This document shows, piece after piece, positions 1 to 63,835 of a DNA stretch of 64,000 nt. The notes beneath the pieces were generated by a model that saw only the letters and a program-made list of their open reading frames with translations, ran no database searches and had not been told where the DNA came from. Where the stretch lies: IMG/VR virus record IMGVR_UViG_3300028591_000131, positions 1 to 64,000 of that record; one strand, 5' to 3'. The position numbers and the translations under genes are program-made. This DNA is from a virus. Taxonomy: Duplodnaviria; Caudoviricetes. Each line of letters begins with the position of its first letter. Positions within the stretch are counted from its first letter, which is position 1.

Positions 1-1456
1 TATCTTTATGCTCATTCATTAAATCACGACACAACACTGCAATTTGATCAATTGGTTCTGAATAACACATAATTACATTCTTAACTTGTGTGACAGCATT
101 GGCATTTTTGCACAGTTTACCAAATCCTACATATTGTGTACTTAAATTTTGTAAACCAATCTGATTTGTTCTTAAAATATCTAATGTTTCGTTTATAAAC
201 GAATTAATACCAGCAAGCATAGTTGTACCTTGTAACTGTTCCACTGCCTGATTATATTGTGTGTCCATACGTTTTGTTGTTTCCAAAGCGTTTTCATATT
301 CAGGAGCATATACATTAAGATATTTCGCTAAATTTGCCAACACAACATCTCTTGTACGATTGATTTTTGTTTGTAATAAATCATTTGTTGTAGTAGTATG
401 AGCCAATGTTTCACCATATTGACGAAAATGTTCAAGGGTTTGTTGATTAATGATATTATCGCTTATAGTATTATTTACAATACCAGAAAGCATATTTTTT
501 AAATTGTTAACAGATTGTATTTCTTCGTGTGTAAATGTTGAAAAAACACGCTGTATAAAGTTTAAAACGGCATTTTTAGCACGTTGTAATATTGATTGAT
601 TAATTGTACTTTCAACAATATTGTCGTTAATCATCTGTGCTACTAATCGACCTAATGCTTCACGTTGAATTAAGTGACTCCTGTTAGATTTGGTATAATA
701 ATCTACAACAGAATCATAGTCATCACCAAGAATTTCTCTTACTAAATCGTCATTATTTTGTAGTAATTGTTCTGCACGTTGTATAATTGGATTATCTTTT
801 ATATTCTCAATAACAAAATGCGCAAATTCCTCAGTTAGTGCATTAAAACCAGCAATATTGTTGGCAATATTTATCACTCCTATAAAACCATCAATTGTAT
901 TATTAAGTGCTTCTGGAACCATTAAACCATCTTCACCATGCAATAATCCAGCTTCAAGTATATTAATATTAATACTATGTGCTTGTAATAAAGTGTTAAT
1001 GGTATTATAAATATTCATTGCTTGTTGTAAATGTTCAGATTGTGCATTTGTTTTTTCATTTCGTTCATATACACGAATTGTCGGTTTACCATCTATGTCT
1101 TCAACCAATGCAACAAAATGTGTATTCTTTGCATTATATTTAATAGCTTGATCTATTTTCGATAAAACACTTGTATTTGTATTAGATACCAATTCTTGTT
1201 CAATTTGTTGACGTTGTACATCAGTATTTAGTATATCACCACTATTTAAAAATGACATAACTGAATCTATTGTAGGTTCGTTATTTGAATCAAATACTAA
1301 TTGGTTTTTATATTTGTTTATGAAAGTATTGGATGTTAAAGCACAATAAATTTGTTTTAACACATTATGATCAGTTATCCATGTTCTTAATTTTTGATAT
1401 AAGATACTGGGTTTACCATTATCTGCATCGGGTATTAATTTACAATGTGTACTCAT
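1..1456 (-). CDS. Large virion cargo/ejection protein, N-terminal part (runs off the left edge)
   Basis: Not in the ORF track. ATG at 1456 gives MSTHCKLIPDADNGKPSILY..., with no in-frame stop in the segments I translated. Contains zincin-like EEFAH (818-832) followed by EALGRL. Lies directly after the virion RNAP, where crAss-like phages encode their largest cargo protein. Confidence 0.8.
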   Translation of the reverse strand, partial: MSTHCKLIPDADNGKPSILYQKLRTWITDHNVLKQIYCALTSNTFINKYKNQLVFDSNNEPTIDSVMSFLNSGDILNTDVQRQQIEQELVSNTNTSVLSKIDQAIKYNAKNTHFVALVEDIDGKPTIRVYERNEKTNAQSEHLQQAMNIYNTINTLLQAHSININILEAGLLHGEDGLMVPEALNNTIDGFIGVINIANNIAGFNALTEEFAHFVIENIKDNPIIQRAEQLLQNNDDLVREILGDDYDSVVDYYTKSNRSHLIQREALGRLVAQMINDNIVESTINQSILQRAKNAVLNFIQRVFSTFTHEEIQSVNNLKNMLSGIVNNTISDNIINQQTLEHFRQYGETLAHTTTTNDLLQTKINRTRDVVLANLAKYLNVYAPEYENALETTKRMDTQYNQAVEQLQGTTMLAGINSFINETLDILRTNQIGLQNLSTQYVGFGKLCKNANAVTQVKNVIMCYSEPIDQIAVLCRDLMNEHKD

Positions 1457-1480
1457 ATTCTTTGTTTATATTATTACAAT

Positions 1481-4400
1481 TTAGCAAATTTTTATACTTT
1501 TCTTTTTAGACTCATTTATTAATTTTTCACGTTCTTCATTACTGAAATTTAATCCACTAATGAAAAATTGTGTAGGATCAAATACAACTGTTTCTGAATC
1601 AAGATCTTCAGATAATTCTAATGGTTCATCTTCTACAGCAACTTGCAGATTTTCGGAATACCAATTATGATAACGATCTGAATTTGTTGTTTTACTATAT
1701 ACAGTATTGTCGTATTGTTCCTTAAGAGCAAAAAATTCGTTTGAAACTCTTAATAATTCAGGATGTTCTGCTTTAGCCATATTTGCAAGTTGTATAAAAA
1801 ATTGATTATACGCTGGAATTTGTTGTATTAATCTTACTGGAGCTAATCGAGTTAATGTTGAACTATTAAACGATAAACCACTGTGATAAAGTTCATAAAT
1901 AAATAATTCTGTAAACAAATCACGTATTTTCTGATCTTTATCAGTCAGCAACTGTTCCCATCCTTCAGTAAGATATAATACATCTGTTGCATTCAAACCA
2001 TAAGATGAGATTGATACTGACGATTCATATTCGTTACCACAATTTAATCTTTGTAAAAACGGATTATTACGATATTCTGGTAGCTGTAACAATTCTGTAC
2101 GTTTTCTTGCTATTTGTAACGGAAAGATGCTTTTATAATATTCACGCACGTTGTTATCGTGACTTAACAACACATCACCATCTTCCGTTGGTAAGTTAAA
2201 TAATACATATGTTAACCAATCATTATAGACTAATCGCAATGAATTAGCTGAACGAAGTGTATTGTTTTGTGGTAATTGAGAAAAATAGTGCATTACTGGT
2301 GCTAAAGCAGATGTTAATGCATCCAATAATAATTGTCTGTTATTAAATACAGATGCTAAAAACGCATTATAATTGCTGCTATTTAAATTTTCAGTAGGTT
2401 TTCTTAATACCGTAGCTAAATTTCTGCTAAAATTCAAATTATCAGCTTCTGGATTTTCTAATTTATCCAGTAAATTGGTAATTTGTTTTTGTGATAAAAC
2501 CATTCTGAATAAATCACCGTTTAATTGTAACGAGGAAGCATTGTTTAAATTAACTATTTTACCGATATCAAATGATTTTGAAGAGATGGATAAAAGTTGT
2601 TTTGCAATTAAAAAGATATGATACTGTTGATTTACGAAATCTGCATCTTCTTTTGTAAAATCGTGCAGTGCCATGTTGGTAATCAAATCATCTCTACTTA
2701 TATTATCGCCTTCATAATCAGTTAATTCAACACCAATCTTTGAAAAGAACGACTCCATTGCCTTGAATATTGCTTGATTTGTCAAATTTTCAGTATAATT
2801 GTCAAGTGTATTCATACGTTTAATTATGGGTTGTTGCAAGAATAGTACAACAGTCTCTAAATCAAAACCCAATCTTAACATAGTAATAACCATGTTGATA
2901 GTACCAATACCGATATTTAAATTATAAAAGGTAGGATCTTTTGCAGTATCTGGAGCTGCAGCAAGAAATTCTGAAAGAGTATCAATAACTGTTGTTACAT
3001 CATCAGATGAATATACTTTATCAAGTATCGGTTTGCTTTCAACTTTGACACCATTTAGTTCAAAGGGTTTTACTCCAGAAATACGTGTGTTCCAAAGTCG
3101 ATTCATACTATGTTGTGTAAGAATTGCAGCGATAATACCTAACAATTTTTTACCAGAAAAATTACGATTGTGAATTGTTTCTTGTGTGTGAACATCATTA
3201 ACATCAGTATCTAATTCTACAGCCTTGAATTTAGTTTCCAAGTCATCATCTGAATATTGTTCAACCGTTGTAAAAGCACTTTCAGTAAATACATCCATAT
3301 CATCTAGTGTTTCATCTGGACCAATTTGAGTCATTTGAGAACGTATTTCTTGATCAAACACAACCATTCTTTCCGACCATCGTGTAATATCAACGTAACC
3401 AGATGGAGTCATTTGATGTAATAAAGCAGCTTCGGAAGTTAAAATAGTACGCATTAATTGTAAAATAGAATTATTAGTTCCAGCTAATGAGATTTCATTT
3501 GCCTCTACTGTATGACCATCTTGTTGTAATTCTGGAAAGATAGTAAATAATTTATCAATATCAAAGTCGATACCCATTAATGCTGGAGCTTCAGAAGGTA
3601 ATTTAATAATACCACCCGTAATATTACTGCTGAATCGTACAACTTTCAGTGGCAACATGGAACAATATCCTTCAGTTGGAATACGATAGGCAACTAATTC
3701 TAGTAATTTAGGATCTTCTTTTTCAATACGTTTCATATCTATTTCGCCAGCATGTTCTCCTTCAGCAATAATGTATTTATTAAAAAGTTTTTTTGAAAAT
3801 AACGGTAATTCACATTCGATATATTTAATAGATTTAGGATTACCAAATTTATCAGTATTAAATACTATTTTTAAAGAATCATCTGTTTCAATTGATTTTT
3901 TCGTACGAATATTATCAGTAACTTGAACTAATTGTCCACCAGGCATTCTCAATTCACAAATTGTATTTTTAATAACCGATGTAATAATTTTTTCTACAAA
4001 CCCAGCAATAACTGGATTATTCAAGTTAAGATTAAAATCTCCAGTATTTAAGTTTAATGCAACTGCATTTAACAAATCCAAATTAGCATCGTCGTCGCTT
4101 TTTATTTGATTCGCTAACCAATTACTAAGTTTTTCTTTATATTGAATATTATCTGGATTATCAATATCATTAAAGATTCTTTCAAACTCTTTAATGTCAT
4201 TGATACCAAAATGATTTTTAATTGTACGATTAACTTCTAATTGTACTTTTCTACCAAGTAAGCCAAAGAATTTTACACGTAATTGTTTACCAGTCATTCC
4301 CGTTTCTGGAATCACAGTATTCTCATAGTCAAGTAAACAATTGCAAATCAATTTAATGATTTGGTTACCCACACGTATATTGTGATCCAAATAGTGACTT

Positions 4401-7400
4401 GGAGTTTCTTGCTGTAATTTATTTTCACCAATATCGACAGATGTAATATATTTAGCGTCACCATTCGATTGTGCAAGATGAGCGTTCATATCAGCAATAA
4501 GTTCATTACTGTCTGTGTAGTCACATATTTTTTTATCAGCAATTGTTCCCTTCGCACCCACTTTAACATTTGATGCAAAATAAATAGCATCTATTTTATT
4601 TACTCGCATCCATTTGACAAGTTGTAACATCGTATCGTCTTTAGATTCTAATAAAGCAACTAAATCCAAGCCGGGAAATTGTGCATTTTTAACTTGTATT
4701 GGAGTTAATTCTCCCATACCATCTTGTTCATTTTCCAGATTTAATGTATATAAAAACGGTTTAATCGTTTCCATAACAAAATCTGTATTATTTAATACCT
4801 TACGAGCTTCTTTCAATAACTCTTTGCGTTGTTTTTCTTTTTCAGCTCCAGTTTTAGTAGGATCGTATTTATCAATAATTGCAACCAACTGTTTGTATAA
4901 TGGATAAAAATCAGTATCACGACCTAATGATTCAAGTAAACGTCCAACATAATCAATTGAAATCAAACCCTGTCCATCGGTAGTATCAATGCCGTTATAT
5001 TTAGACAATTTTGTTTCATATGCAGCTTTAAGTTTTTCATCAACTTCTTTTTTCTTCGTTTTATCAGTAATTTTGCTTGTCCTCCAAAGTCTTGCATTGT
5101 GATAAATACGTTCCAATATTGATTTTAAACTTGTTTGCGTAGTTTTAGAACCATCATCTAATTTAACTTGTAAATTATCAGCATCGACTTTGGTATCAGA
5201 AAACATTACGAAACTGATATTCCGATCTTTACGACTTTGATATCGACTTGAGGAAACTGCATTTTGCTTTGTTCCTGGAGAAACAAATTCAGCGTTACGT
5301 TTTTGAGTATCAGTAACAGATGGATAATAAATTAAATCACCTGTCCACATTTGTTGCATTTGAGTATTGGCATAATGATAATTAGCATACCAAGTATTAA
5401 AAAATTCTTTGTTGTTTACATAAGCAGTTAATTGTTGGATAGCTGTAGTATCGTTTACTTCACAATCTTCTAAAAAGGATATAGTGTTTAATAACTGTTG
5501 ACGATATTTATTTGCTTCATTAAGTAAATAGTTATTAATTTTTTTATTAACTGCGTTATAAAACGGTTCAGGATTAGTTAATTCACGATCTTTAATAATA
5601 TCGTAAATACCTTGTGCAATTATATTATGTCTACGTTTTTTAGGATCATTTATTAATCTTAAATCATCATTGAAAATTGGTAAAAATGTAAATCTAAATG
5701 CACCATTCCCAACTGGAATAACATCAGAACTGGTTTTTGTATGCATATTTTTAACAGTTGTTTTGGTACTGTCTTGTTGCATATCATAGACGTGACACAT
5801 GCGCTCCAGTTCTTGATCAAACAATGTTTCATATCGTTTTTGCATATCAACAGGTAAGGTATTACCTGTAATTTGATCTGGATCAGCAACACGAATGCTA
5901 CCATGAGTACTTTTATCAGATGTTGTAGGAACGATATAGTATCCATTTTCAAAACTTACCATAGAATATAATAAATAATATAAAGAATTAAATTCTTTAT
6001 ACGGAATGTCATCGTATGTAGTAGTCGTGGTCAACGTTACATCACGATTCTGATTAAAAATCAAATCTAACCATGATGTATACGAATCTCCTTCATCAGA
6101 TTGTAAAGCGCGCTGGTGAAATATAGATTTTGAAAACGCTTCTTTTAATTTTGCATAAGCTTTACCAGATGGATTCCTTAATGCGTTAACGAATTTTTGC
6201 AAAAAATTTAACGGTGAGAATGTACTATACGATTTATTACCTGCACGTACTGAAGATTTGGTAATCTTTGGTTCACCTTTATGAATTATCGAAAATGCTT
6301 TAATGTATAGTTGACGTATATCTTTTGTCTTTTCAGCAATGCTGCTTGTTGAATTATTTACTGTAGCCAGTAATTTATCGCACAAAGTTGTCAAACTTAA
6401 TTGATTCAAATTATGTGTATGTCTTGCATATATTTTTTGATTACGTGTGTTTTTATTTTGGATATAACGACCTTGTAAATAGTTTCTGATTGTCGACAAG
6501 GACAGATCGTCAAAACCCATTTCCCTAAAAATATCTAGCAGTTTAGAAGCTAAAACAATAGCAGCACGATCAAAATCAATAATTTGTGCAGTCTCGTTAG
6601 CATAAATACCACTTCTGCTTTGTGGTAAATGTTGTAGTGAATTTTTAAATTCATCAATAGCTTCTTTAATATTTTGTTTAATTTGAGATAATTTTGTTTC
6701 GTTAATAAACAGTTGTGATCCAGTTTCTTCGGTAACATAAAACAATGTTCCATTTACATCATTTTGTACAGTATCACTAATTTGTCCATTAAAAGCTGTA
6801 TTTGCAGCGTGGCGAGTTGTTTGTTCTGGTTTGTTTATATCCTTTACTTTCGATTCACCCGTTGTACTATATTGACGATATATATTATATGCTTTTTGTA
6901 TTGACGACACCAATTTGTCTCGTAATTGGTGGTTGTTTTTAAAACGGTTAAGTAATATACTTGAAAATTCTAGTTTTGATGTTTCTAATCTATCTTTTAA
7001 TTCTTCCCAATCATCAACATCGTGAAACAACATCACTAATGTATCTAAGATGTCTTTTGCTCTGAATGTAACACGACGTCCAAAAACATCACGGTTTTTA
7101 CTTGTGATTCCACTTAACCAAAACATTACGTTTTTATCAACCGCCTTGTATAAATTGACTTGTGTTTGTGAAATTTGTAAAAAATCTCTTGCAACTTCAT
7201 TTTCTAAATCTTCAGGGTCAAGTTCACTATTTTCTTGCTCTGTAGTAGTTTCTAAATCTGTTGCGTCGTTGTCGTCTGTAGTTTGATAATCATATTTGAA
7301 TTTAAAATCCAAAGTACGTCTGGTGAAATTATTTAATTTTGAAAACCAAATGGGTGTGAATTTGTCAATTTCTCCAATAACTTCTAATTTACGCGTTTCA

Positions 7401-8878
7401 TCTGATATTAAACTATGTAAAATCTGTTTAACGCGATCAGAGATTAATTTTTGAAAATTATCAGTTCCAATAGTTTTAATGATTTTAACAAACGGATTGA
7501 ATTTATTTTTCTTAGTAATTCGAATTATTTGTTGTATAATTTCATCACTAACAATTGGTTTTGTACCATCATCATATAAAGCAAAGGTTGATTCTGGGTC
7601 TGTTATAACCGAATATAAAAAATTAAATAATGTATCTTCAAAGATTTTTATAATCGATAATTTTTCGCTGAAAGACAGTGTAGAACGATTGTCAAATTCC
7701 TCACGCAATTTTAATTTGTTGTATAAAACAGGATTGCTAGTTTGTAAAGTACCTAATTGAAAACCGTTTGAGTTTTTTCTACGAAACCGATTTAAAATAG
7801 TATTACGGTTATTTGCTGTCTCAACTTCTATACGTTCAATTTCTTCTTCACTTAACGATTGAGCTTGTTTACGTTTTTCACGAATCGTTGCAATATCGTA
7901 TGTTAAATCTTCTAATATTAAATTTGATAAAGATTTAAAATTCGTTGGTTTTTCTTTCTCATTTTTAGAAAATAAAGTTTTAACGTCTTCCCAAAAAGCA
8001 GTACATATATTTTTTAGAGAAGTAAGCATTTTTGATACAATTGTACGTTTGGCATATAATAATATATCAAAATTTTCTCTTGTAGAATATAGTGCAATCA
8101 TTTCACCAAGTATAGTATCCCATTGTGGATCGGTAAGATTTTGTGGATTATAATGAAATGTTGATATTGCAGTCTGAAAAAAGTCATGAATTTGTTTGTC
8201 TTCCAAAGTATATTCGGATGAATCTTTTTTCAATACATTATTAACCAGTTCTTTTAATGAACTTGATATATTTTTCCAACCAACACGTTCGTTGGAATCA
8301 GGTTGTGATTTTAAATTTTGTACCCATAAGTGTGTATATTCATACAGATAGGTTTTCTGACGCCCAGTGTTGATACTTGTATTGATATATACAACCCCAT
8401 TATGTGATATAGAAATAATTTTTTTCTTCTTTTTACGATCAGGCGAAAATGTATAAATAGCATTGCCAGAAGACTGTGTTTCTTTAACTTTTTGTAACAT
8501 TTCTTTATTAGAAAGAAATTGCACATTATCTCCACCACGTAATTTTAATGCTGGAATTATATAGTTGTCAATAAACGAAGCGTTTAAAAACTTTTTTGGT
8601 GTTTTCAACTTATCATCCCCACGTTTGATTTGTAACATACGTGTAGTATATAATTCTTTGCGAAGTTGTTGTTTTTCTTCTTCGGTTGCGGCATTTTTTA
8701 TTTTTTCTTCACCATTAGTATAGTAAACGTTTTCAGTACCGTCAAAATTATACTTTATATGATGACCATCATTTAATGCCCATACGGTATATGCTGTCAC
8801 ACTACCATACATTTGACATAAATCGTCAAATTCATTTTTAACTTTTGGATTACTTAATACAGGACAAAAATTACTCAT
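1481..8878 (-). CDS. Virion-packaged single-chain DNA-dependent RNA polymerase (crAss-like, phi14:2 gp66-type)
   Basis: 2465 aa. Catalytic DFDID at 3554-3568 (MGIDFDIDKLF), preceded by YRIPTEG; also TDGQG and IKPF motifs. Degenerate zincin motif YEYTH near the N-terminus. Located in the cargo cluster. Confidence 0.93.
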   Translation of the reverse strand: MSNFCPVLSNPKVKNEFDDLCQMYGSVTAYTVWALNDGHHIKYNFDGTENVYYTNGEEKIKNAATEEEKQQLRKELYTTRMLQIKRGDDKLKTPKKFLNASFIDNYIIPALKLRGGDNVQFLSNKEMLQKVKETQSSGNAIYTFSPDRKKKKKIISISHNGVVYINTSINTGRQKTYLYEYTHLWVQNLKSQPDSNERVGWKNISSSLKELVNNVLKKDSSEYTLEDKQIHDFFQTAISTFHYNPQNLTDPQWDTILGEMIALYSTRENFDILLYAKRTIVSKMLTSLKNICTAFWEDVKTLFSKNEKEKPTNFKSLSNLILEDLTYDIATIREKRKQAQSLSEEEIERIEVETANNRNTILNRFRRKNSNGFQLGTLQTSNPVLYNKLKLREEFDNRSTLSFSEKLSIIKIFEDTLFNFLYSVITDPESTFALYDDGTKPIVSDEIIQQIIRITKKNKFNPFVKIIKTIGTDNFQKLISDRVKQILHSLISDETRKLEVIGEIDKFTPIWFSKLNNFTRRTLDFKFKYDYQTTDDNDATDLETTTEQENSELDPEDLENEVARDFLQISQTQVNLYKAVDKNVMFWLSGITSKNRDVFGRRVTFRAKDILDTLVMLFHDVDDWEELKDRLETSKLEFSSILLNRFKNNHQLRDKLVSSIQKAYNIYRQYSTTGESKVKDINKPEQTTRHAANTAFNGQISDTVQNDVNGTLFYVTEETGSQLFINETKLSQIKQNIKEAIDEFKNSLQHLPQSRSGIYANETAQIIDFDRAAIVLASKLLDIFREMGFDDLSLSTIRNYLQGRYIQNKNTRNQKIYARHTHNLNQLSLTTLCDKLLATVNNSTSSIAEKTKDIRQLYIKAFSIIHKGEPKITKSSVRAGNKSYSTFSPLNFLQKFVNALRNPSGKAYAKLKEAFSKSIFHQRALQSDEGDSYTSWLDLIFNQNRDVTLTTTTTYDDIPYKEFNSLYYLLYSMVSFENGYYIVPTTSDKSTHGSIRVADPDQITGNTLPVDMQKRYETLFDQELERMCHVYDMQQDSTKTTVKNMHTKTSSDVIPVGNGAFRFTFLPIFNDDLRLINDPKKRRHNIIAQGIYDIIKDRELTNPEPFYNAVNKKINNYLLNEANKYRQQLLNTISFLEDCEVNDTTAIQQLTAYVNNKEFFNTWYANYHYANTQMQQMWTGDLIYYPSVTDTQKRNAEFVSPGTKQNAVSSSRYQSRKDRNISFVMFSDTKVDADNLQVKLDDGSKTTQTSLKSILERIYHNARLWRTSKITDKTKKKEVDEKLKAAYETKLSKYNGIDTTDGQGLISIDYVGRLLESLGRDTDFYPLYKQLVAIIDKYDPTKTGAEKEKQRKELLKEARKVLNNTDFVMETIKPFLYTLNLENEQDGMGELTPIQVKNAQFPGLDLVALLESKDDTMLQLVKWMRVNKIDAIYFASNVKVGAKGTIADKKICDYTDSNELIADMNAHLAQSNGDAKYITSVDIGENKLQQETPSHYLDHNIRVGNQIIKLICNCLLDYENTVIPETGMTGKQLRVKFFGLLGRKVQLEVNRTIKNHFGINDIKEFERIFNDIDNPDNIQYKEKLSNWLANQIKSDDDANLDLLNAVALNLNTGDFNLNLNNPVIAGFVEKIITSVIKNTICELRMPGGQLVQVTDNIRTKKSIETDDSLKIVFNTDKFGNPKSIKYIECELPLFSKKLFNKYIIAEGEHAGEIDMKRIEKEDPKLLELVAYRIPTEGYCSMLPLKVVRFSSNITGGIIKLPSEAPALMGIDFDIDKLFTIFPELQQDGHTVEANEISLAGTNNSILQLMRTILTSEAALLHQMTPSGYVDITRWSERMVVFDQEIRSQMTQIGPDETLDDMDVFTESAFTTVEQYSDDDLETKFKAVELDTDVNDVHTQETIHNRNFSGKKLLGIIAAILTQHSMNRLWNTRISGVKPFELNGVKVESKPILDKVYSSDDVTTVIDTLSEFLAAAPDTAKDPTFYNLNIGIGTINMVITMLRLGFDLETVVLFLQQPIIKRMNTLDNYTENLTNQAIFKAMESFFSKIGVELTDYEGDNISRDDLITNMALHDFTKEDADFVNQQYHIFLIAKQLLSISSKSFDIGKIVNLNNASSLQLNGDLFRMVLSQKQITNLLDKLENPEADNLNFSRNLATVLRKPTENLNSSNYNAFLASVFNNRQLLLDALTSALAPVMHYFSQLPQNNTLRSANSLRLVYNDWLTYVLFNLPTEDGDVLLSHDNNVREYYKSIFPLQIARKRTELLQLPEYRNNPFLQRLNCGNEYESSVSISSYGLNATDVLYLTEGWEQLLTDKDQKIRDLFTELFIYELYHSGLSFNSSTLTRLAPVRLIQQIPAYNQFFIQLANMAKAEHPELLRVSNEFFALKEQYDNTVYSKTTNSDRYHNWYSENLQVAVEDEPLELSEDLDSETVVFDPTQFFISGLNFSNEEREKLINESKKKSIKIC

Positions 8879-8909
8879 ATGTTTTTTTGTTTTATAATCA
8901 TTACTTTAA

Positions 8910-11900
8910 TTAACAACCAGTTGTGGAATCTTCTTTTGAAGCTTCTTTAATAGCTTGTTTTAACTTATCACTACATTGACTTAAAAAATCCTGGTTCAAT
9001 TCAATACAAGCGGTTTTAAAGTCTATATTGTTCATTTCATTATCTATTTGTTCAATTTCTTCTTTAAATGTATTAAATACAGCATCTAAAGAAGTATAAT
9101 TTTCTTGTGTTTGTGCTGCAACCAAATCAGATTCTACCGCTTGTTCGTTTTGCTCATTATCAGTTTGTTTTGTTTCTTCAATCGGAGCTTCCGTTGTAGC
9201 TTGTGGAGTTTCAGTTTGTACTTGTTGTTTTTGTGTTGCACGTCTACGAAAGACTCCTCGTGTTGTTTGTTTCTCACGTTTTTCACCCAAAACAAACGTG
9301 TAATTCACATTGAATGGTACCAATTCTTGATATAAACCCAATAAACCATCTTTTACCAATCGACGTATATCCAAACGTTCTTTAGCAAATTCCAAAGCAA
9401 ATTTGATATTTTCATCTGCTGCAGTCATTGTATCCATAATAGAAATTTTGGTAATAGACGGCACAACATGCAAATCATTTACCAAATAATCTGTAAATTG
9501 ATCAACACTTTCAAATGGAATATTATAAGTATAACCGTCAACTGGATATTGTAAACCATCAATTCCTTTTGTAGTAATTCGTATTTTCCAATCTGGTGAA
9601 AGATTTTTCTTTCCTGCATTTACATTGACAATTTGTAATGTGCAAGTATCTTTTTCAGCTTGGTTGTCTACTTCCCAATAAACCTTTTTATTGCCACCCA
9701 AATCTTCAGTAGTATTTACACGTTTCTTTTTTGGTAATTGAAACGCGATGGAATTTCTCAAAATAGCATTTAATCCAGCAAAATTTTTAATTTCTGGATT
9801 ATTATACATTTTGGAAATTAAATTTACAACGTCTGTAAGTACACCGTCGTCTTTTTTAAATGGTCTTAAATCACATTTAATATAAGAAAAATCTGATAAC
9901 TCGATAGATTGTGCATTTGATGGTATTTTACCTTCTCTGTGTGTAAATACATATACAACACCAGCAGCAATATCTTGTTTATTATTTAATATCATTTGTG
10001 ATAAGGCAGGTTTACTTAAGTTAACATATTTATCACCATCATAAATATAAACGTTATTTTCTGTACGAAAACAAATAAAATAACTTTGGTTATTATCAAA
10101 TTGATTTTGAATATCATTCATATCAACACCGTCATCGAAAACAGTACGATTGTTGTCGGTTACTTTGTGTACAGCTCCACGCATAGGTGCAGCTTCAAAC
10201 ACACCTTTTAGTTTAAAGAAGTTACCATCCATCCCGGAATTACTGATATCTTCATATTGTTGTGTACCAGGTAAAACATAACCACATAATGTGGGTTCAC
10301 TTGTGTCTGTTAATTTACTATAAACACCAATTACTGTTTCTGTATAATCAGCTGTAACTTGTAATTCAATTGGAGCAAATTGTAATTCCGCACCCGTTTT
10401 TAATAAACGATAATTATATAAATTATAAATACCATCATCCTTACAAAGTTTGTGTATGTGATTTAACAAAGCTACACGTTTTCTTTTTTCTGGATCAACA
10501 CTACGCAAGCCGTTTAAAAGTTTTTGTAGAAAATTCTGAGTTTTGGGTACAGATTTACTGTTTGTGTTGCTATTATTAAACAAATCGTATTCTGTAATTG
10601 GAATAGCTGCTTTACCACTATTTACAGTGTCATCTAATGTTTTAGCCAATTCGCCTTCCTCTTCATCTGTCAAAGCATCAGTTATAGGAACATTTATGTC
10701 AGATTGATCTTGAATTACATTTTCATCTGTATTGTTATTTTGTTCTGTTTGTTCTTGTTGAACTTCTGGCTGTTGTTCCGTTTGTATTGCAAGATCTTCG
10801 TTATCTATCGGATTAATCACTGGATTTTCAGATGGATTGGTTTCTGGTTCTGTTGCGGCTTCTTCACTAATCACTGGGTTTTCCACATTGTCGGGTGTTT
10901 CTGGTACTATAGGATTTTCAGAAGATTGTAAATTTTTAACTGGTGTTTCTGTTTCTTGCTGTGATTCTGTTGTGGTAGATTTATTTGAACGTGTTGTAAA
11001 TCCAGATTCGAATTCGTTAATTGCTTGCATTAATTGATTAAATACATCAATTCGTTTTTGAAACAGTTCGTGTTCACTTTCTCTATCGGGATTATCAATT
11101 ACATTTTGCCAAATTTGAATTACTTTTGGTCTAAAATATTGTACAAAAAGTTTACCTTCAACATCTTCTGTTTCAAATTGGTGTTTAATGGTGTTGATAA
11201 TATGATTAGTTTCTTCTGTCGACGCTCCCTGTTCTAATAAAACATTTCGTATTTGTGCAATTAATGGATCTTTAAATAAGATATATTGTACACCTGGCAT
11301 TTCAACACGAGATTCATAAATACCTAATTGTATAACTTTTGGATTGTCAGTGTTTGTAAAAATATCATCACTGACTGGAATATAAACTTCATGTTGTTTA
11401 CTATCCATAATTCTAATAAACGAAGTATGTGCAATAAAATCTACTCCAATGTGAACTTCGACGTCATCACCAAATTTTGTGACAGTTTCATAACCAAAAT
11501 CTGTCATTTGCAAATCATTCTTTGTCATACCACTAGTTGGCTGTTCTGCCATTAATTTAGTAAAATTTTTAACAGCCTCAACTAAATTATTATATACTTC
11601 CGTCGTAACAATAGTGGGTTTGTGAAATACAGGAATAACGGCTTGTTCAAGATTGTGTGCAAAACGTTTTATAGTTTGATACATTTCGCTTTGTGGATCA
11701 TAACTCGATAAAATATCCTGAAAAGTGGCTTGTATTTCTTGAATTGCCGCATCTATATCATCTTTTGATTGTACTGTGTTTAAAATAGATAACAATTGAT
11801 TCTTTAAAGTAGTTTCAATTGTATTATCATTTTTAATATCTTTCTCCAGTTTATCTAAAGCATCGATATATGCGTCAGTTTGTATTTGTTCATATTGTTC

Positions 11901-61472: not shown

Positions 61473-61667
61473 TTACAACCTACCAGTCTTTGTACCAATT
61501 CTACTTTCATCAAATTTTGTTTTTATAGATCCCAAAAGTCTTTTTACATGCGGTAAATCGTTTTGAGATATATAAAAATCCACCACAGTGCGAAATTCTT
61601 CGCTGGTTAGTGCATTTGCTGGTTTACAAAGCAAATAATTTAATCTATTCAAATCGTTTTTGTTCAT
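61473..61667 (-). CDS. Hypothetical protein
   Basis: 64 aa, AT-rich leader, own promoter. Confidence 0.55.
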   Translation of the reverse strand: MNKNDLNRLNYLLCKPANALTSEEFRTVVDFYISQNDLPHVKRLLGSIKTKFDESRIGTKTGRL

Positions 61668-61691: not shown

Positions 61692-61701
61692 TGCAAAGAT
61701 A
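61692..61701 (-). promoter_or_regulatory. Bacteroidota promoter (-7 box), first of the late strand
   Basis: TATCTTTGCA. Confidence 0.75.
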
Positions 61702-61873
61702 CGAAAAATTTTTTAATTTTTAAAATTTTTTATTTTTTTTTTTGAAAACTTTGTGGTTGTTAGGGAGAAGAGAATAATGTAGCGACATCCGGGAGGTGTC
61801 TTGGTGTGTGGGTGCTATCCCCATACATTAAGCGTGAAAAAAACATTAGTACAAACCAATTAAATTAACAATT

Positions 61874-62245
61874 ATGAAATTAGTAGATTTCATTAGCGCA
61901 GCAAAAAAATTCAACCATTTCACGGACGTTTGCGATGAGTCGGAAATTGAAAAAATTGTATCTATCATTTCCAGACCTTACGCAGCGTTTACAACTAAAA
62001 ACGGGCAAAACGTCCCAGCTGGTATTAGCTATCAATTAGCTACAAAAGAGGGCGCGTTTAAAGTGAAGTGCACCGAAAAAACTTTCAATGCTTTTGTGTG
62101 TTTAGTTAATAGTAATATTCCGAATACGGAGTACAAAAAGTATGTTACATTGACACATTTTGAGGGCAAAAATGCAGACGGTGAGGAATACGAAGTAAAT
62201 ACATTCACTTGTATTTACAATCCCATTGAGGAGCAGGCTGAATAG
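61874..62245 (+). CDS. Hypothetical protein, first gene after the strand switch
   Basis: 123 aa, AT-rich leader, followed by a terminator. Confidence 0.7.
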   Translation: MKLVDFISAAKKFNHFTDVCDESEIEKIVSIISRPYAAFTTKNGQNVPAGISYQLATKEGAFKVKCTEKTFNAFVCLVNSNIPNTEYKKYVTLTHFEGKNADGEEYEVNTFTCIYNPIEEQAE

Positions 62246-62261
62246 CCTGTTCCCCTTTTTT
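62231..62261 (+). terminator. Intrinsic terminator
   Basis: GAGCAGGCT-GAAT-AGCCTGTTC followed by CCC-T6. Confidence 0.75.
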
Positions 62262-63250
62262 GGGTTAACTGCAGAGCTAGATTAATTTTTTTAACTTTGT
62301 AGTTGACCTAGTTCACGCTTTATTATCCACTTAGATTAAATTAGTCTCGTCTTGGTGGTGTTAACAACAGAGGCTAAGCAATTATTTATTGTGAGGTGGA
62401 ATTTGACGTGTCGTATGACCTTTGAGTGCTGGTGAAAACCCAAGCTCGTCAAATTACAGAGGTGGTTTGGGTCGCACCCAAGGTAACAATAAATAATTGT
62501 TTAAGTTGTTGAGAATGAGAGAGATGATAATAACTCACCATCTCTCTCACTTCCCAGCAATTATCCCCAATTAAAATTGCTAACGTAAAAGTATTAGCAA
62601 TTTTGGGGATATTAATTTTATTAAAAGGTTGTGGATTGTCCTACAAAATCCTCATTAAGTTACTTTCATTTTGTATTGACCTTGTGAGCTTGCTCCCATC
62701 GTTAACCTGCTCTCATTATTAAGCCGATAATGAATGGAGTCGGTAAAACTCTCTGCAACATCAGGGAATTTGGCAATAATCCATCAGTTAGGCTACAGTA
62801 GCTGATGCACGTATTGTTTAATTCTCTGATGCCAAGTAATATGATTTTCTAGACATTTAAAATTATCTGTGGCCTATGTACTGGTATAGAAAATTCCATA
62901 ATCCTGTGACGACAGGTTACATGCTGATAACACTATTGATTTGCAGCAATAGTTGTGATAAGCATTGTAAGTTATCAATGTTCTGCAAGCATTGATAACG
63001 AAAATTATCCTCTGGGTGAGACAGACGTGTCTTGCATCGCGACCAGAGGATTGTGTAATGTGGCTCGTCATTTGATGAACGGTTCCAAGCCCGTATAAAT
63101 ACAGAGGACACAATAAAAAACTCAATATAAAATATCCTTGTGGAGTTGTGGGGTAACTGCGTAAAACAGAGGATTTCCAAGATGTTGAGGACGCCAGTTT
63201 CTTATAGAGACTATAACAAATTAAGCTTGTGATCTTATGATAATAAAACA
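62261..63250 (+). ncRNA. Candidate large structured non-coding RNA or structured leader
   Basis: No credible ORF. At least 10 adjacent long stems, with imperfections mostly G-U on the plus strand (e.g. 62261-76/62295-310, 62376-92/62486-502, 62759-70/62820-31, 62971-82/62988-99). Confidence 0.65.
63050..63114 (+). ncRNA. Twister ribozyme, type P1
   Basis: P1 ATTGTG/CACAAT; U^AA; P2 TGTG/TACA; T2 GCT/AGC; P3 TCAT/ATGA; P4 ACGG/CCGT with loop TTCCAAGC; ATAAA; GAGGA giving T1 TCC/GGA. Matches the twister consensus element by element. Confidence 0.88.
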
Positions 63251-63337
63251 TCTTGTTATTATAAACTGAGTGTGGTAAGGTAAACAATTGATTTGTTGTA
63301 CTATAAGTTTTAGGCGTAAAACACAAAAATTAAAATT

Positions 63338-63835
63338 ATGGATATCTCAAAAATATTAAAAAAATGTCCCGCTGGGACAAAATTATATTCTCCTATATTG
63401 GGAGATTGTTTCCTAAGAAAGGTATCTGCAAACGGAATTGTAGTAACACATATATTAGATCCATTGCGTGAATATCAATTCACAATAGATGGAAAATATA
63501 CTGTGGTAGGAAATATTCCAACTGCAGAGTGTGTATTATTTCCATCTAAAGAAAATAGTGATTGGTCAACATTCCAACAATCTAGGTTAGCAGAATACTC
63601 TACAGAAGAATTGCGTAAAGAACTTAAAAGACGTAATACTGAAGAAAAGGCATTACGTCAAAAAGAGTTCGATTCTGCACACAGATGTAGAAATTGTAAG
63701 TTCTTTGAACTAGAACCAAATACAATATTTGGTAGTCATATTTGCGCTGCTCGTACATGGGGTAAAAACATTAAACGACATTATGTCGTAAATGGTTCCC
63801 ACGGTGTGCAATGTAAAGAATTTGTTCATAAATAA
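63338..63835 (+). CDS. Hypothetical early protein with C-terminal Cys cluster
   Basis: ILK.CP.GTKLYS.I.G...EC.LFPSKEN.DWS.F domain, then CRNC..F...C...C. Confidence 0.75.
   Translation: MDISKILKKCPAGTKLYSPILGDCFLRKVSANGIVVTHILDPLREYQFTIDGKYTVVGNIPTAECVLFPSKENSDWSTFQQSRLAEYSTEELRKELKRRNTEEKALRQKEFDSAHRCRNCKFFELEPNTIFGSHICAARTWGKNIKRHYVVNGSHGVQCKEFVHK

Follow-up and report, generated by a model that had tools for sequence, protein, structure and literature searches.

Conserved, exchangeable RNA modules bordered by predicted self-cleaving ribozymes in an uncultured crAss-like phage

What occupies a gap of 1,092 nt without genes in the plus-strand arm of an uncultured crAss-like phage? The gap lies near the end of the window, by which we mean the whole stretch of 64,000 nt that was analysed; it is the start of a virus record of 103,184 bp whose terminase is ~50–54% identical to those of the uncultured crAss-like phages cr108_1, cr85_1 and IAS virus. 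The minus strand is filled up to position 61667 with giant ORFs and structural genes, and the plus-strand arm begins at 61874 with an ORF of 123 aa; the gap separates this ORF from one of 165 aa at 63338. No function could be assigned to the neighbouring ORFs from Pfam or PHROG, and the 165-aa protein gave no PDB or atlas lead and has no recognisable function. The phage has no tRNA gene in the window and two in the plus-strand arm; five distant crAss-like genomes (L016, L017, L022, L024 and L027) carry ~9–22 tRNA genes upstream of the terminase gene and on its strand. An earlier note on this DNA had read most of the gap as one discrete RNA of 750–800 nt, densely structured, belonging to no known family, transcribed, possibly from a promoter of its own, in the first-expressed region, ended by a twister ribozyme and perhaps serving as a decoy, sponge or anti-defence RNA.

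The structural part of this reading holds up well. Every stem that had been listed is found in the sequence, as are both GACG loops (62908–62911 and 63024–63027). The 811 nt at 62246–63056 fold with −260.1 kcal/mol, against −191 ± 7 kcal/mol for dinucleotide shuffles (z −9.6), so that the claimed density of structure is borne out, and a sliding scan of 200 nt gives z-scores of −3.4 to −5.5 across most of 62100–63100. The minus strand of the same stretch is equally extreme (−225.7 kcal/mol, z −9.7), and thus the z-score reveals dense inverted repeats and not which strand matters. In absolute terms the plus strand folds 34 kcal/mol better.

We took advantage of relatives in metagenome assemblies. 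About 20 homologues of the 165-aa protein (49–78% identity) were found there and their contigs were fetched; together with one metagenome pattern scan, these yielded eight sequences that cover the RNA region in whole or in part, all from uncultured crAss-like phages: the window, L031, L032, L039, L042, L043, L048 and L050. Three contigs, L032, L033 and L034, are identical in the RNA region, L043 and L048, both partial contigs, span the 3′ part of the conserved core described below, and L050 holds modules 2 and 3 only. The non-coding region is 82–95% identical in nucleotides across the relatives, compared with 74–78% for the adjacent 165-aa gene in most of them, and the RNA is therefore better conserved than the neighbouring genes. 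As to the first ORF of the arm, L031 carries the window's own (93% identical in protein), and those of L038, L039, L042 and L050 share 20–29% protein identity with it. Just seven closely related versions underlie these comparisons, and a recent swapping of modules among the phages could account for much of the conservation.

Further members proved scarce. Among 50,697 deposited phages, blastn with the region returned no match. In IMG/VR, searches with the flanking proteins, a 447-aa neighbour and the terminase recovered distant or partial loci only, from which the RNA is absent, and a search for an invariant 20-mer found nothing; the same 20-mer in JGI metagenomes gave one true homologue and four chance matches. 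No members were added when distant crAss-like genomes and 34 fetched loci were searched with DNA and covariance models, nor did a covariance model of module 5 add any.

Read from its 5′ end on the plus strand, the region opens with a terminator-like hairpin detected by consensus scan (62230–62253, followed by T6; whole element 62230–62259), which overlaps the stop codon of the 123-aa ORF, is kept in L031 and L039 and agrees with the terminator that had been proposed upstream of the hairpin at 62260. That hairpin, module 1 (62260–62311), pairs 62260–62276 with 62295–62311 over 17 bp, five of them G-U (the 16-bp version described earlier has four), and is kept in L031 with one change of C-G to U-A and with G-U changes. 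Module 2 comes in two parts: the 5′ part (62323–62378), which is 85–92% identical in L031, L039 and L050, and, resuming at 62502, the 3′ part (62502–62615), with two strong hairpins at 62505–62561 (including the stem 62516–62549) and 62562–62611. Between the two parts sits a three-way-junction domain (62379–62501) closed by an 18-bp stem (62375–62392/62486–62503), with inner helices 62401–62407/62448–62454 and 62466–62472/62476–62482. Module 3 (62622–62696), where the conserved core starts, has an AAGGU/ACCUU closing helix around a covarying hairpin and is found in L031, L032, L039, L042 and L050. Module 4 (62697–62899) consists of an interrupted hairpin of 27 bp (62759–62831), a second hairpin (62866–62890) and conserved single-stranded linkers. 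Module 5 (62900–63051) is the most conserved block, with 92% mean column identity in seven sequences, and is a row of hairpins: 62903–62916 (GACG loop), 62917–62970 (AUUUGCAG loop), 62971–62999 (CUGCA loop) and 63007–63051 (GACG loop and a 7-nt bulge).

The relatives do not treat this stretch as a unit, and the claim of one discrete RNA of 750–800 nt did not stand: only 62622–63051 is kept together. The stretch is a mosaic of separable modules around a core of ~430 nt (62622–63051), and the 5′ hairpins at 62260–62615 are accessory. Modules 3–5 stay joined in the window, L031, L032 and L042. L039 keeps modules 3 and 5, with an unrelated module between them that it has in common with L040, and L050 has module 3 alone of the core. 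The two parts of module 2 recur in L031, L039 and L050, and the three-way-junction domain is unique to the window phage: it is absent from L031 and L050 and replaced in L039, and no second copy of it was found in the genome or in the fetched loci. In L050, a RAGATH-1 hammerhead directly 3′ of module 2 and then a 158-aa ORF separate the 62502–62615 hairpins from module 3; in L039 only a hammerhead remnant follows module 2. Since module 2 and the core are cut apart in relatives, the RNA of the window looks like a fusion of two units. The core has varying neighbours on both sides, which argues for its autonomy: upstream a 123-aa ORF, a 132-aa ORF, or a hammerhead with a 29-aa ORF; downstream a leader, a tRNA or a 105-aa ORF.

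The site within module 2 (62378/62502) has received two unrelated structured inserts, of 123 nt in the window and of 145 nt in L039 (L039:2114–2258). The latter is flanked by an 11-nt direct repeat, CTAAGTTGTTG, and this repeat, as read from the sequence, suggests that a small mobile element was inserted or that the site is a hot spot of recombination.

Which strand is under selection was apparent from an alignment of 62705–63056 in seven sequences, for which a consensus fold was computed with RNAalifold. The fold recovers the hairpins of the earlier note, and standard pairs make up 98.5% of the cells in its 87 consensus pairs. Nine pairs in this alignment of modules 4 and 5 carry two-sided, compensatory changes, a number reached by none of 500 column shuffles and falling to 0–1 when the partners are slid by 1–3 columns; four of the nine lie in the terminal stem 63007–63015/63043–63051. 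Paired cells are G-U in 70 instances against one A-C (21 pair columns against one), which speaks decisively for selection on plus-strand RNA and against a palindrome maintained in DNA, and together with the compensatory changes upholds the earlier interpretation of the G-U bias. An alignment of module 3 (62615–62760) adds four pairs that change on both sides. In the 3′ hairpins of module 2, all 38 predicted pairs are kept in four sequences, with several one-sided G-U changes and no double changes. We conclude that the region is a folded, conserved non-coding RNA read from the plus strand.

Conservation is not confined to the helices. Variable columns make up 38 of the 159 unpaired and 37 of the 174 paired positions; unpaired columns are thus as conserved as paired ones, and loops and linkers must also be under sequence constraint. 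Two long-range helices of the minimum-free-energy fold (62843–62849/63000–63006 and 62659–62665/62834–62840) were dropped from the model because relatives, on our reading of the alignments (A1 and A2), do not keep them. No long-range or tertiary pairing is supported in the relatives, and the core may be a string of independent hairpins. The invariant loops AUUUGCAG (62939–62946) and CUGCA (62983–62987), in adjacent hairpins, share 5 nt of complementarity (UGCAG with CUGCA), and each holds the palindrome UGCA. Judging from these letters, the two loops could contact each other, and loops so self-complementary could make such contacts within or between molecules.

Immediately 3′ of the core, at 63052–63112 on the plus strand, lies a match to the Twister-P1 ribozyme (Rfam RF03160; 56.4 bits, E 2.2e-11) that is full-length (model positions 1–68) and below the gathering score of 67.2; homologues score 50.4–61.6 bits, and relative to the model the window's copy has a P4 hairpin shortened by 7 positions. 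The ribozyme is conserved, with invariant core blocks, across six sequences, and it has the conserved core nucleotides, the P1, P2 and P4 helices and the T1 and T2 pseudoknots with support from covariation: P2 alternates between G-U and G-C, P4 changes on both sides and T2 goes from C-G to U-A in L048. The scissile site of twister is a U-A step (PMC6154101), which aligns to U63056/A63057. This is the 3′ end that had been proposed at 63056/57, and cleavage there is predicted for what is a conserved, functional-looking twister. In L042 (1195–1410) and L043 (310–522), P4 contains an insert of 38 nt with a hairpin of its own, and Rfam misses these twisters; in both contigs a tRNA gene lies ~25 nt after the twister, directly before the homologue of the 165-aa gene.

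The ribozyme at this junction is not always a twister. In L031, a type-I RAGATH-1 hammerhead with all of its core blocks (CUGAUGA, GAAA and GUC) follows module 5 and replaces the twister. RAGATH-1 (RF03152) scores are 43 bits in L031 (below the gathering score of 56.3), 61.1 in L032 and 57.2 in L037, and stems I and III, as well as the pseudoknot between the 5′ hairpin loop and the loop of stem II, covary among five copies. L032 has both classes, a hammerhead upstream of the core and a twister downstream, from which excision of an RNA of 584 nt is predicted. The exchange of class at a fixed junction indicates that cleavage at the core/ribozyme boundary appears, on sequence grounds, to be the selected feature. 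The predicted hammerhead cut falls 24–26 nt before the next start codon in three contigs (L031:1269/1293, L032:2306/2331 and L050:752/778), a spacing with which the hammerheads look like makers of short 5′-OH mRNA leaders; the ORF that follows the hammerhead in L032 has only 29 aa. The twister keeps no fixed spacing, the next start codon being 281 nt away in the window and a tRNA following in L042.

The promoter suggested for the RNA fared less well. A −7 box, TAACTTTG, does lie at 62292–62299, inside the hairpin of module 1; it is replaced in the closest relative, L031, where the hairpin is kept, and a separate promoter at 62292 is therefore unsupported. When held against the Bacteroidetes-type promoter (TAnnTTTG with a −33 TTTG 19–21 nt upstream), the box has its nearest TTTG 29 nt upstream, and −7 motifs are not above chance in number across the window. 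Counts of a TTGTGG-type motif as phage promoter were uninformative. A different stretch of ~100 nt, at the divergent switch (61700–61799; an A/T tract, then AACTTTGTGGTTGTTAGGGAG), is 88–92% identical in L032, L033, L034, L039 and L042, matches L031, L038 and L050 in shorter parts at ~80–87%, and matches L035 and L040 more weakly. In most of these relatives it is conserved above the first ORF that follows it, and the plus-strand arm may have its promoter and leader here. On the minus strand a perfect Bacteroidetes-type −7 box, TATCTTTG, occupies 61694–61701, ~27 nt upstream of the start of a leftward ORF of 64 aa.

We compared the region with known RNAs. An Infernal/Rfam check of 62246–63051 gave no family match, in keeping with the view that the RNA is of no known family; with Rfam 15 at E ≤ 10 the same stretch attracted only chance-level miRNA and snoRNA matches, and Rfam at gathering scores had no match in the whole window. 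Covariance models of GOLLD, ROOL, HEARO, OLE, raiA, tmRNA and introns did not match 62246–63051. The closest in kind are the RAGATH motifs, which were found by searching near twister and hammerhead ribozymes (PMC6765202, PMC6154101): they too are uncatalogued folded RNAs directly beside a twister or hammerhead in a phage gene neighbourhood, and RAGATH-1 hammerheads occur in the relatives of this phage. The core nevertheless matches no RAGATH model at E ≤ 10 and is much larger than most such motifs, and it differs further in having a 3′ end that would be ribozyme-made, by a class that is exchanged at one junction.

Another parallel is the crAss-like Cellulophaga phage phi14:2, in which early, abundant and persistent long non-coding RNAs come from the g004–g006 intergenic regions of the rightward arm (bioRxiv 10.1101/2020.03.07.982082). 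In both phages the rightward arm has long stretches devoid of ORFs within its first kilobases, and in phi14:2 these have been shown to be transcribed early and to persist; by analogy, the region studied here may also be first-expressed. The phi14:2 RNAs have no sequence or model similarity to the RNA of the window, a search of positions 1–9000 with the module 5 model found nothing, and no Rfam ribozyme was detected in the lncRNA regions at E ≤ 0.01. Of the two published lncRNA regions of phi14:2 itself (L051, NC_021806), one, at 4031–4502 on the plus strand, matches tmRNA (RF00023; 46 bits, gathering score 47, E 6.8e-16), and the folding of the other, at 2905–3589, does not exceed that of shuffles (z −0.3). 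The more distant relative L019 has a tmRNA-type match as well, short and at 49.8 bits. In kind, the RNA described here belongs with the ribozyme-associated structured RNAs of phages and with the early lncRNAs of phi14:2.

GOLLD (RF02032) and ROOL are giant ornate RNAs of phages and prophages (bioRxiv 10.1101/2024.12.08.627333, Kretsch et al.). The likeness lies in a large structured RNA within a tRNA-rich phage region; neither GOLLD nor ROOL was matched in the window or the rest of its genome, and the present RNA differs in that its modules separate in relatives and show no sign of a compact tertiary or multimeric fold. L038 has a GOLLD-like RNA at 1695–2091 on the plus strand (68.4 bits, E 1e-15, below the gathering score of 150), in an 807-nt gap ~0.4 kb downstream of its homologue of the 165-aa gene.

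Intercistronic processing signals offer a last comparison, as represented by the RNase III hairpins of the early region of phage T7 and by RiboJ, an engineered ribozyme insulator. There, as here, hairpins and cleavage lie between cistrons of an early operon and the resulting ends are protected by structure. In contrast to the T7 signals, the predicted cut is made by the RNA itself and not by RNase III, and the structured part, 430–800 nt with conserved loops, goes far beyond what a processing signal needs.

The explanation that we favour is that the gap would be expressed as a plus-strand, non-coding, hairpin-dense transcript built of exchangeable modules. Its core of ~430 nt comprises about ten helices, invariant A/U-rich linkers and the invariant loops (the two GACG loops, AUUUGCAG and CUGCA). 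The twister would cut itself at U63056/A63057, 5 nt past the last hairpin of 45 nt; with a cut so close to a strong stem, the upstream RNA would end in a protected 2′,3′-cyclic phosphate and should resist 3′ exonucleases. Downstream, the leader of the 165-aa ORF (63113–63337, plus strand; parts kept in L032, L035, L039 and L048) would give a message that begins with a 5′-OH and the folded twister body. The ribozyme would thus make the 3′ end of the core and insulate the next cistron, and the core would be a stable product whose loops and linkers offer a platform to which a protein or another RNA binds. The hairpins at 62260–62615 would in relatives be the 3′ tail of the first small ORF, severed by the hammerhead, and have here become fused to the core. 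We infer that the region is transcribed and cleaved in vivo, and that the core is stable and acts in trans. A core that is a stable RNA product with a ribozyme-made 3′ end, acting through its invariant loops and linkers, has in our judgement about an even chance of being the right description. Some considerations weigh against it. In every genome the RNA is preceded by a short same-strand ORF, whose 3′ UTR it could be; the long perfect stems might be substrates of RNase III and be cut up; and the phage, so far as its genes can be read, appears to be without an obvious RNA-binding partner, a search for TROVE, RtcB and reverse transcriptase genes having found none.

The main rival builds on the first of these points. 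On this view the RNA punctuates the operon in cis only: as 3′ UTR of the first ORF it would guard that message from 3′ exonucleases, and the ribozyme would separate the cistrons and give the next one a clean, stable 5′ end, with no RNA acting in trans. Such an arrangement accommodates the short same-strand ORF that always precedes the RNA, the module 2 hairpins that are followed by a hammerhead in L050 or its remnant in L039, and the short distance from hammerhead cut to start codon in L031, L032 and L050, and bacterial ribozymes have been suggested to process polycistronic transcripts (PMC6765202). It accounts poorly for the size of the core and the conservation of its loops: a generic stabiliser needs no 430 nt whose loops and linkers are conserved above the genes that it protects, nor should it stay constant while the upstream ORF differs between genomes. 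The twister, being 281 nt from the start codon here and next to a tRNA in L042, also defines no fixed mRNA leader. We therefore consider a purely cis-acting 3′ UTR and insulator possible and somewhat unlikely.

A bolder form of the stable-product reading takes the RNA from the core to the ribozyme cut as a new class of ribozyme-delimited phage RNA. In some phages it would be excised at both ends, with 5′-OH and 2′,3′-cyclic phosphate termini that the host RtcB could join, and it would fill the niche of GOLLD or ROOL and the phi14:2 lncRNAs: an early RNA, abundant and swappable, whose invariant loops let it bind a host or phage factor or assemble with one. This we put forward as speculation that is improbable as a whole.

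Lower still we place the proposal that these are selfish or decaying mobile RNA modules, ribozyme-linked cassettes that spread by recombination or insertion without benefit to the phage. The mosaic content of modules in every relative is what such cassettes would leave behind, as are the two unrelated inserts at one site, one with its direct repeat, and near the RNA region lie HNH genes and a group I intron that carries a LAGLIDADG gene. Against this, compensatory and G-U-preserving substitutions point to continuing purifying selection on the fold, no extra copies exist in the genome, and the core always has the same position and orientation beside a ribozyme; a selfish origin without function seems to us a poor prospect.

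Function at the level of DNA and coding are both effectively excluded. A role of the inverted repeats in DNA, for example in an origin of replication, in binding sites or in cruciforms of the divergent gene switch 0.6 kb away, with RNA folding only incidental, would be compatible with that location and with the equally extreme z-score of the minus strand; however, symmetry in DNA predicts both kinds of one-sided change in equal number, and these changes nearly always yield G-U on the plus strand, and the region has a fixed ribozyme at its end, meaningful only as RNA and replaced by the other class in L031, which makes such a role highly improbable. Small proteins are less probable again, as the ORFs that do exist in the window (39–47 aa on the plus strand, 150 aa on the minus strand at 62874–63326) match no PHROGs family and are each broken by stops or frameshifts in homologues, which show indels of 1–2 nt and no codon periodicity (variable sites by codon phase 28/25/22), and with the 150-aa ORF not conserved and no other conserved ORF in the region this reading was rejected.

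Few gut viruses match the crAss-like phages in abundance, and the RNA biology of the early regions of these phages is almost unexplored. The role of self-cleaving ribozymes in bacteria and phages is itself an open question (PMC6765202), for which this locus provides a natural experiment: two unrelated classes of ribozyme at one junction, behind the same conserved RNA. The exchange of class, taken with the ribozymes on both sides of the core in L032, points to precise excision of the RNA as the selected function. The locus defines a testable RNA of about 430–580 nt, and it illustrates how exchangeable modules in a chain can look like one giant RNA.
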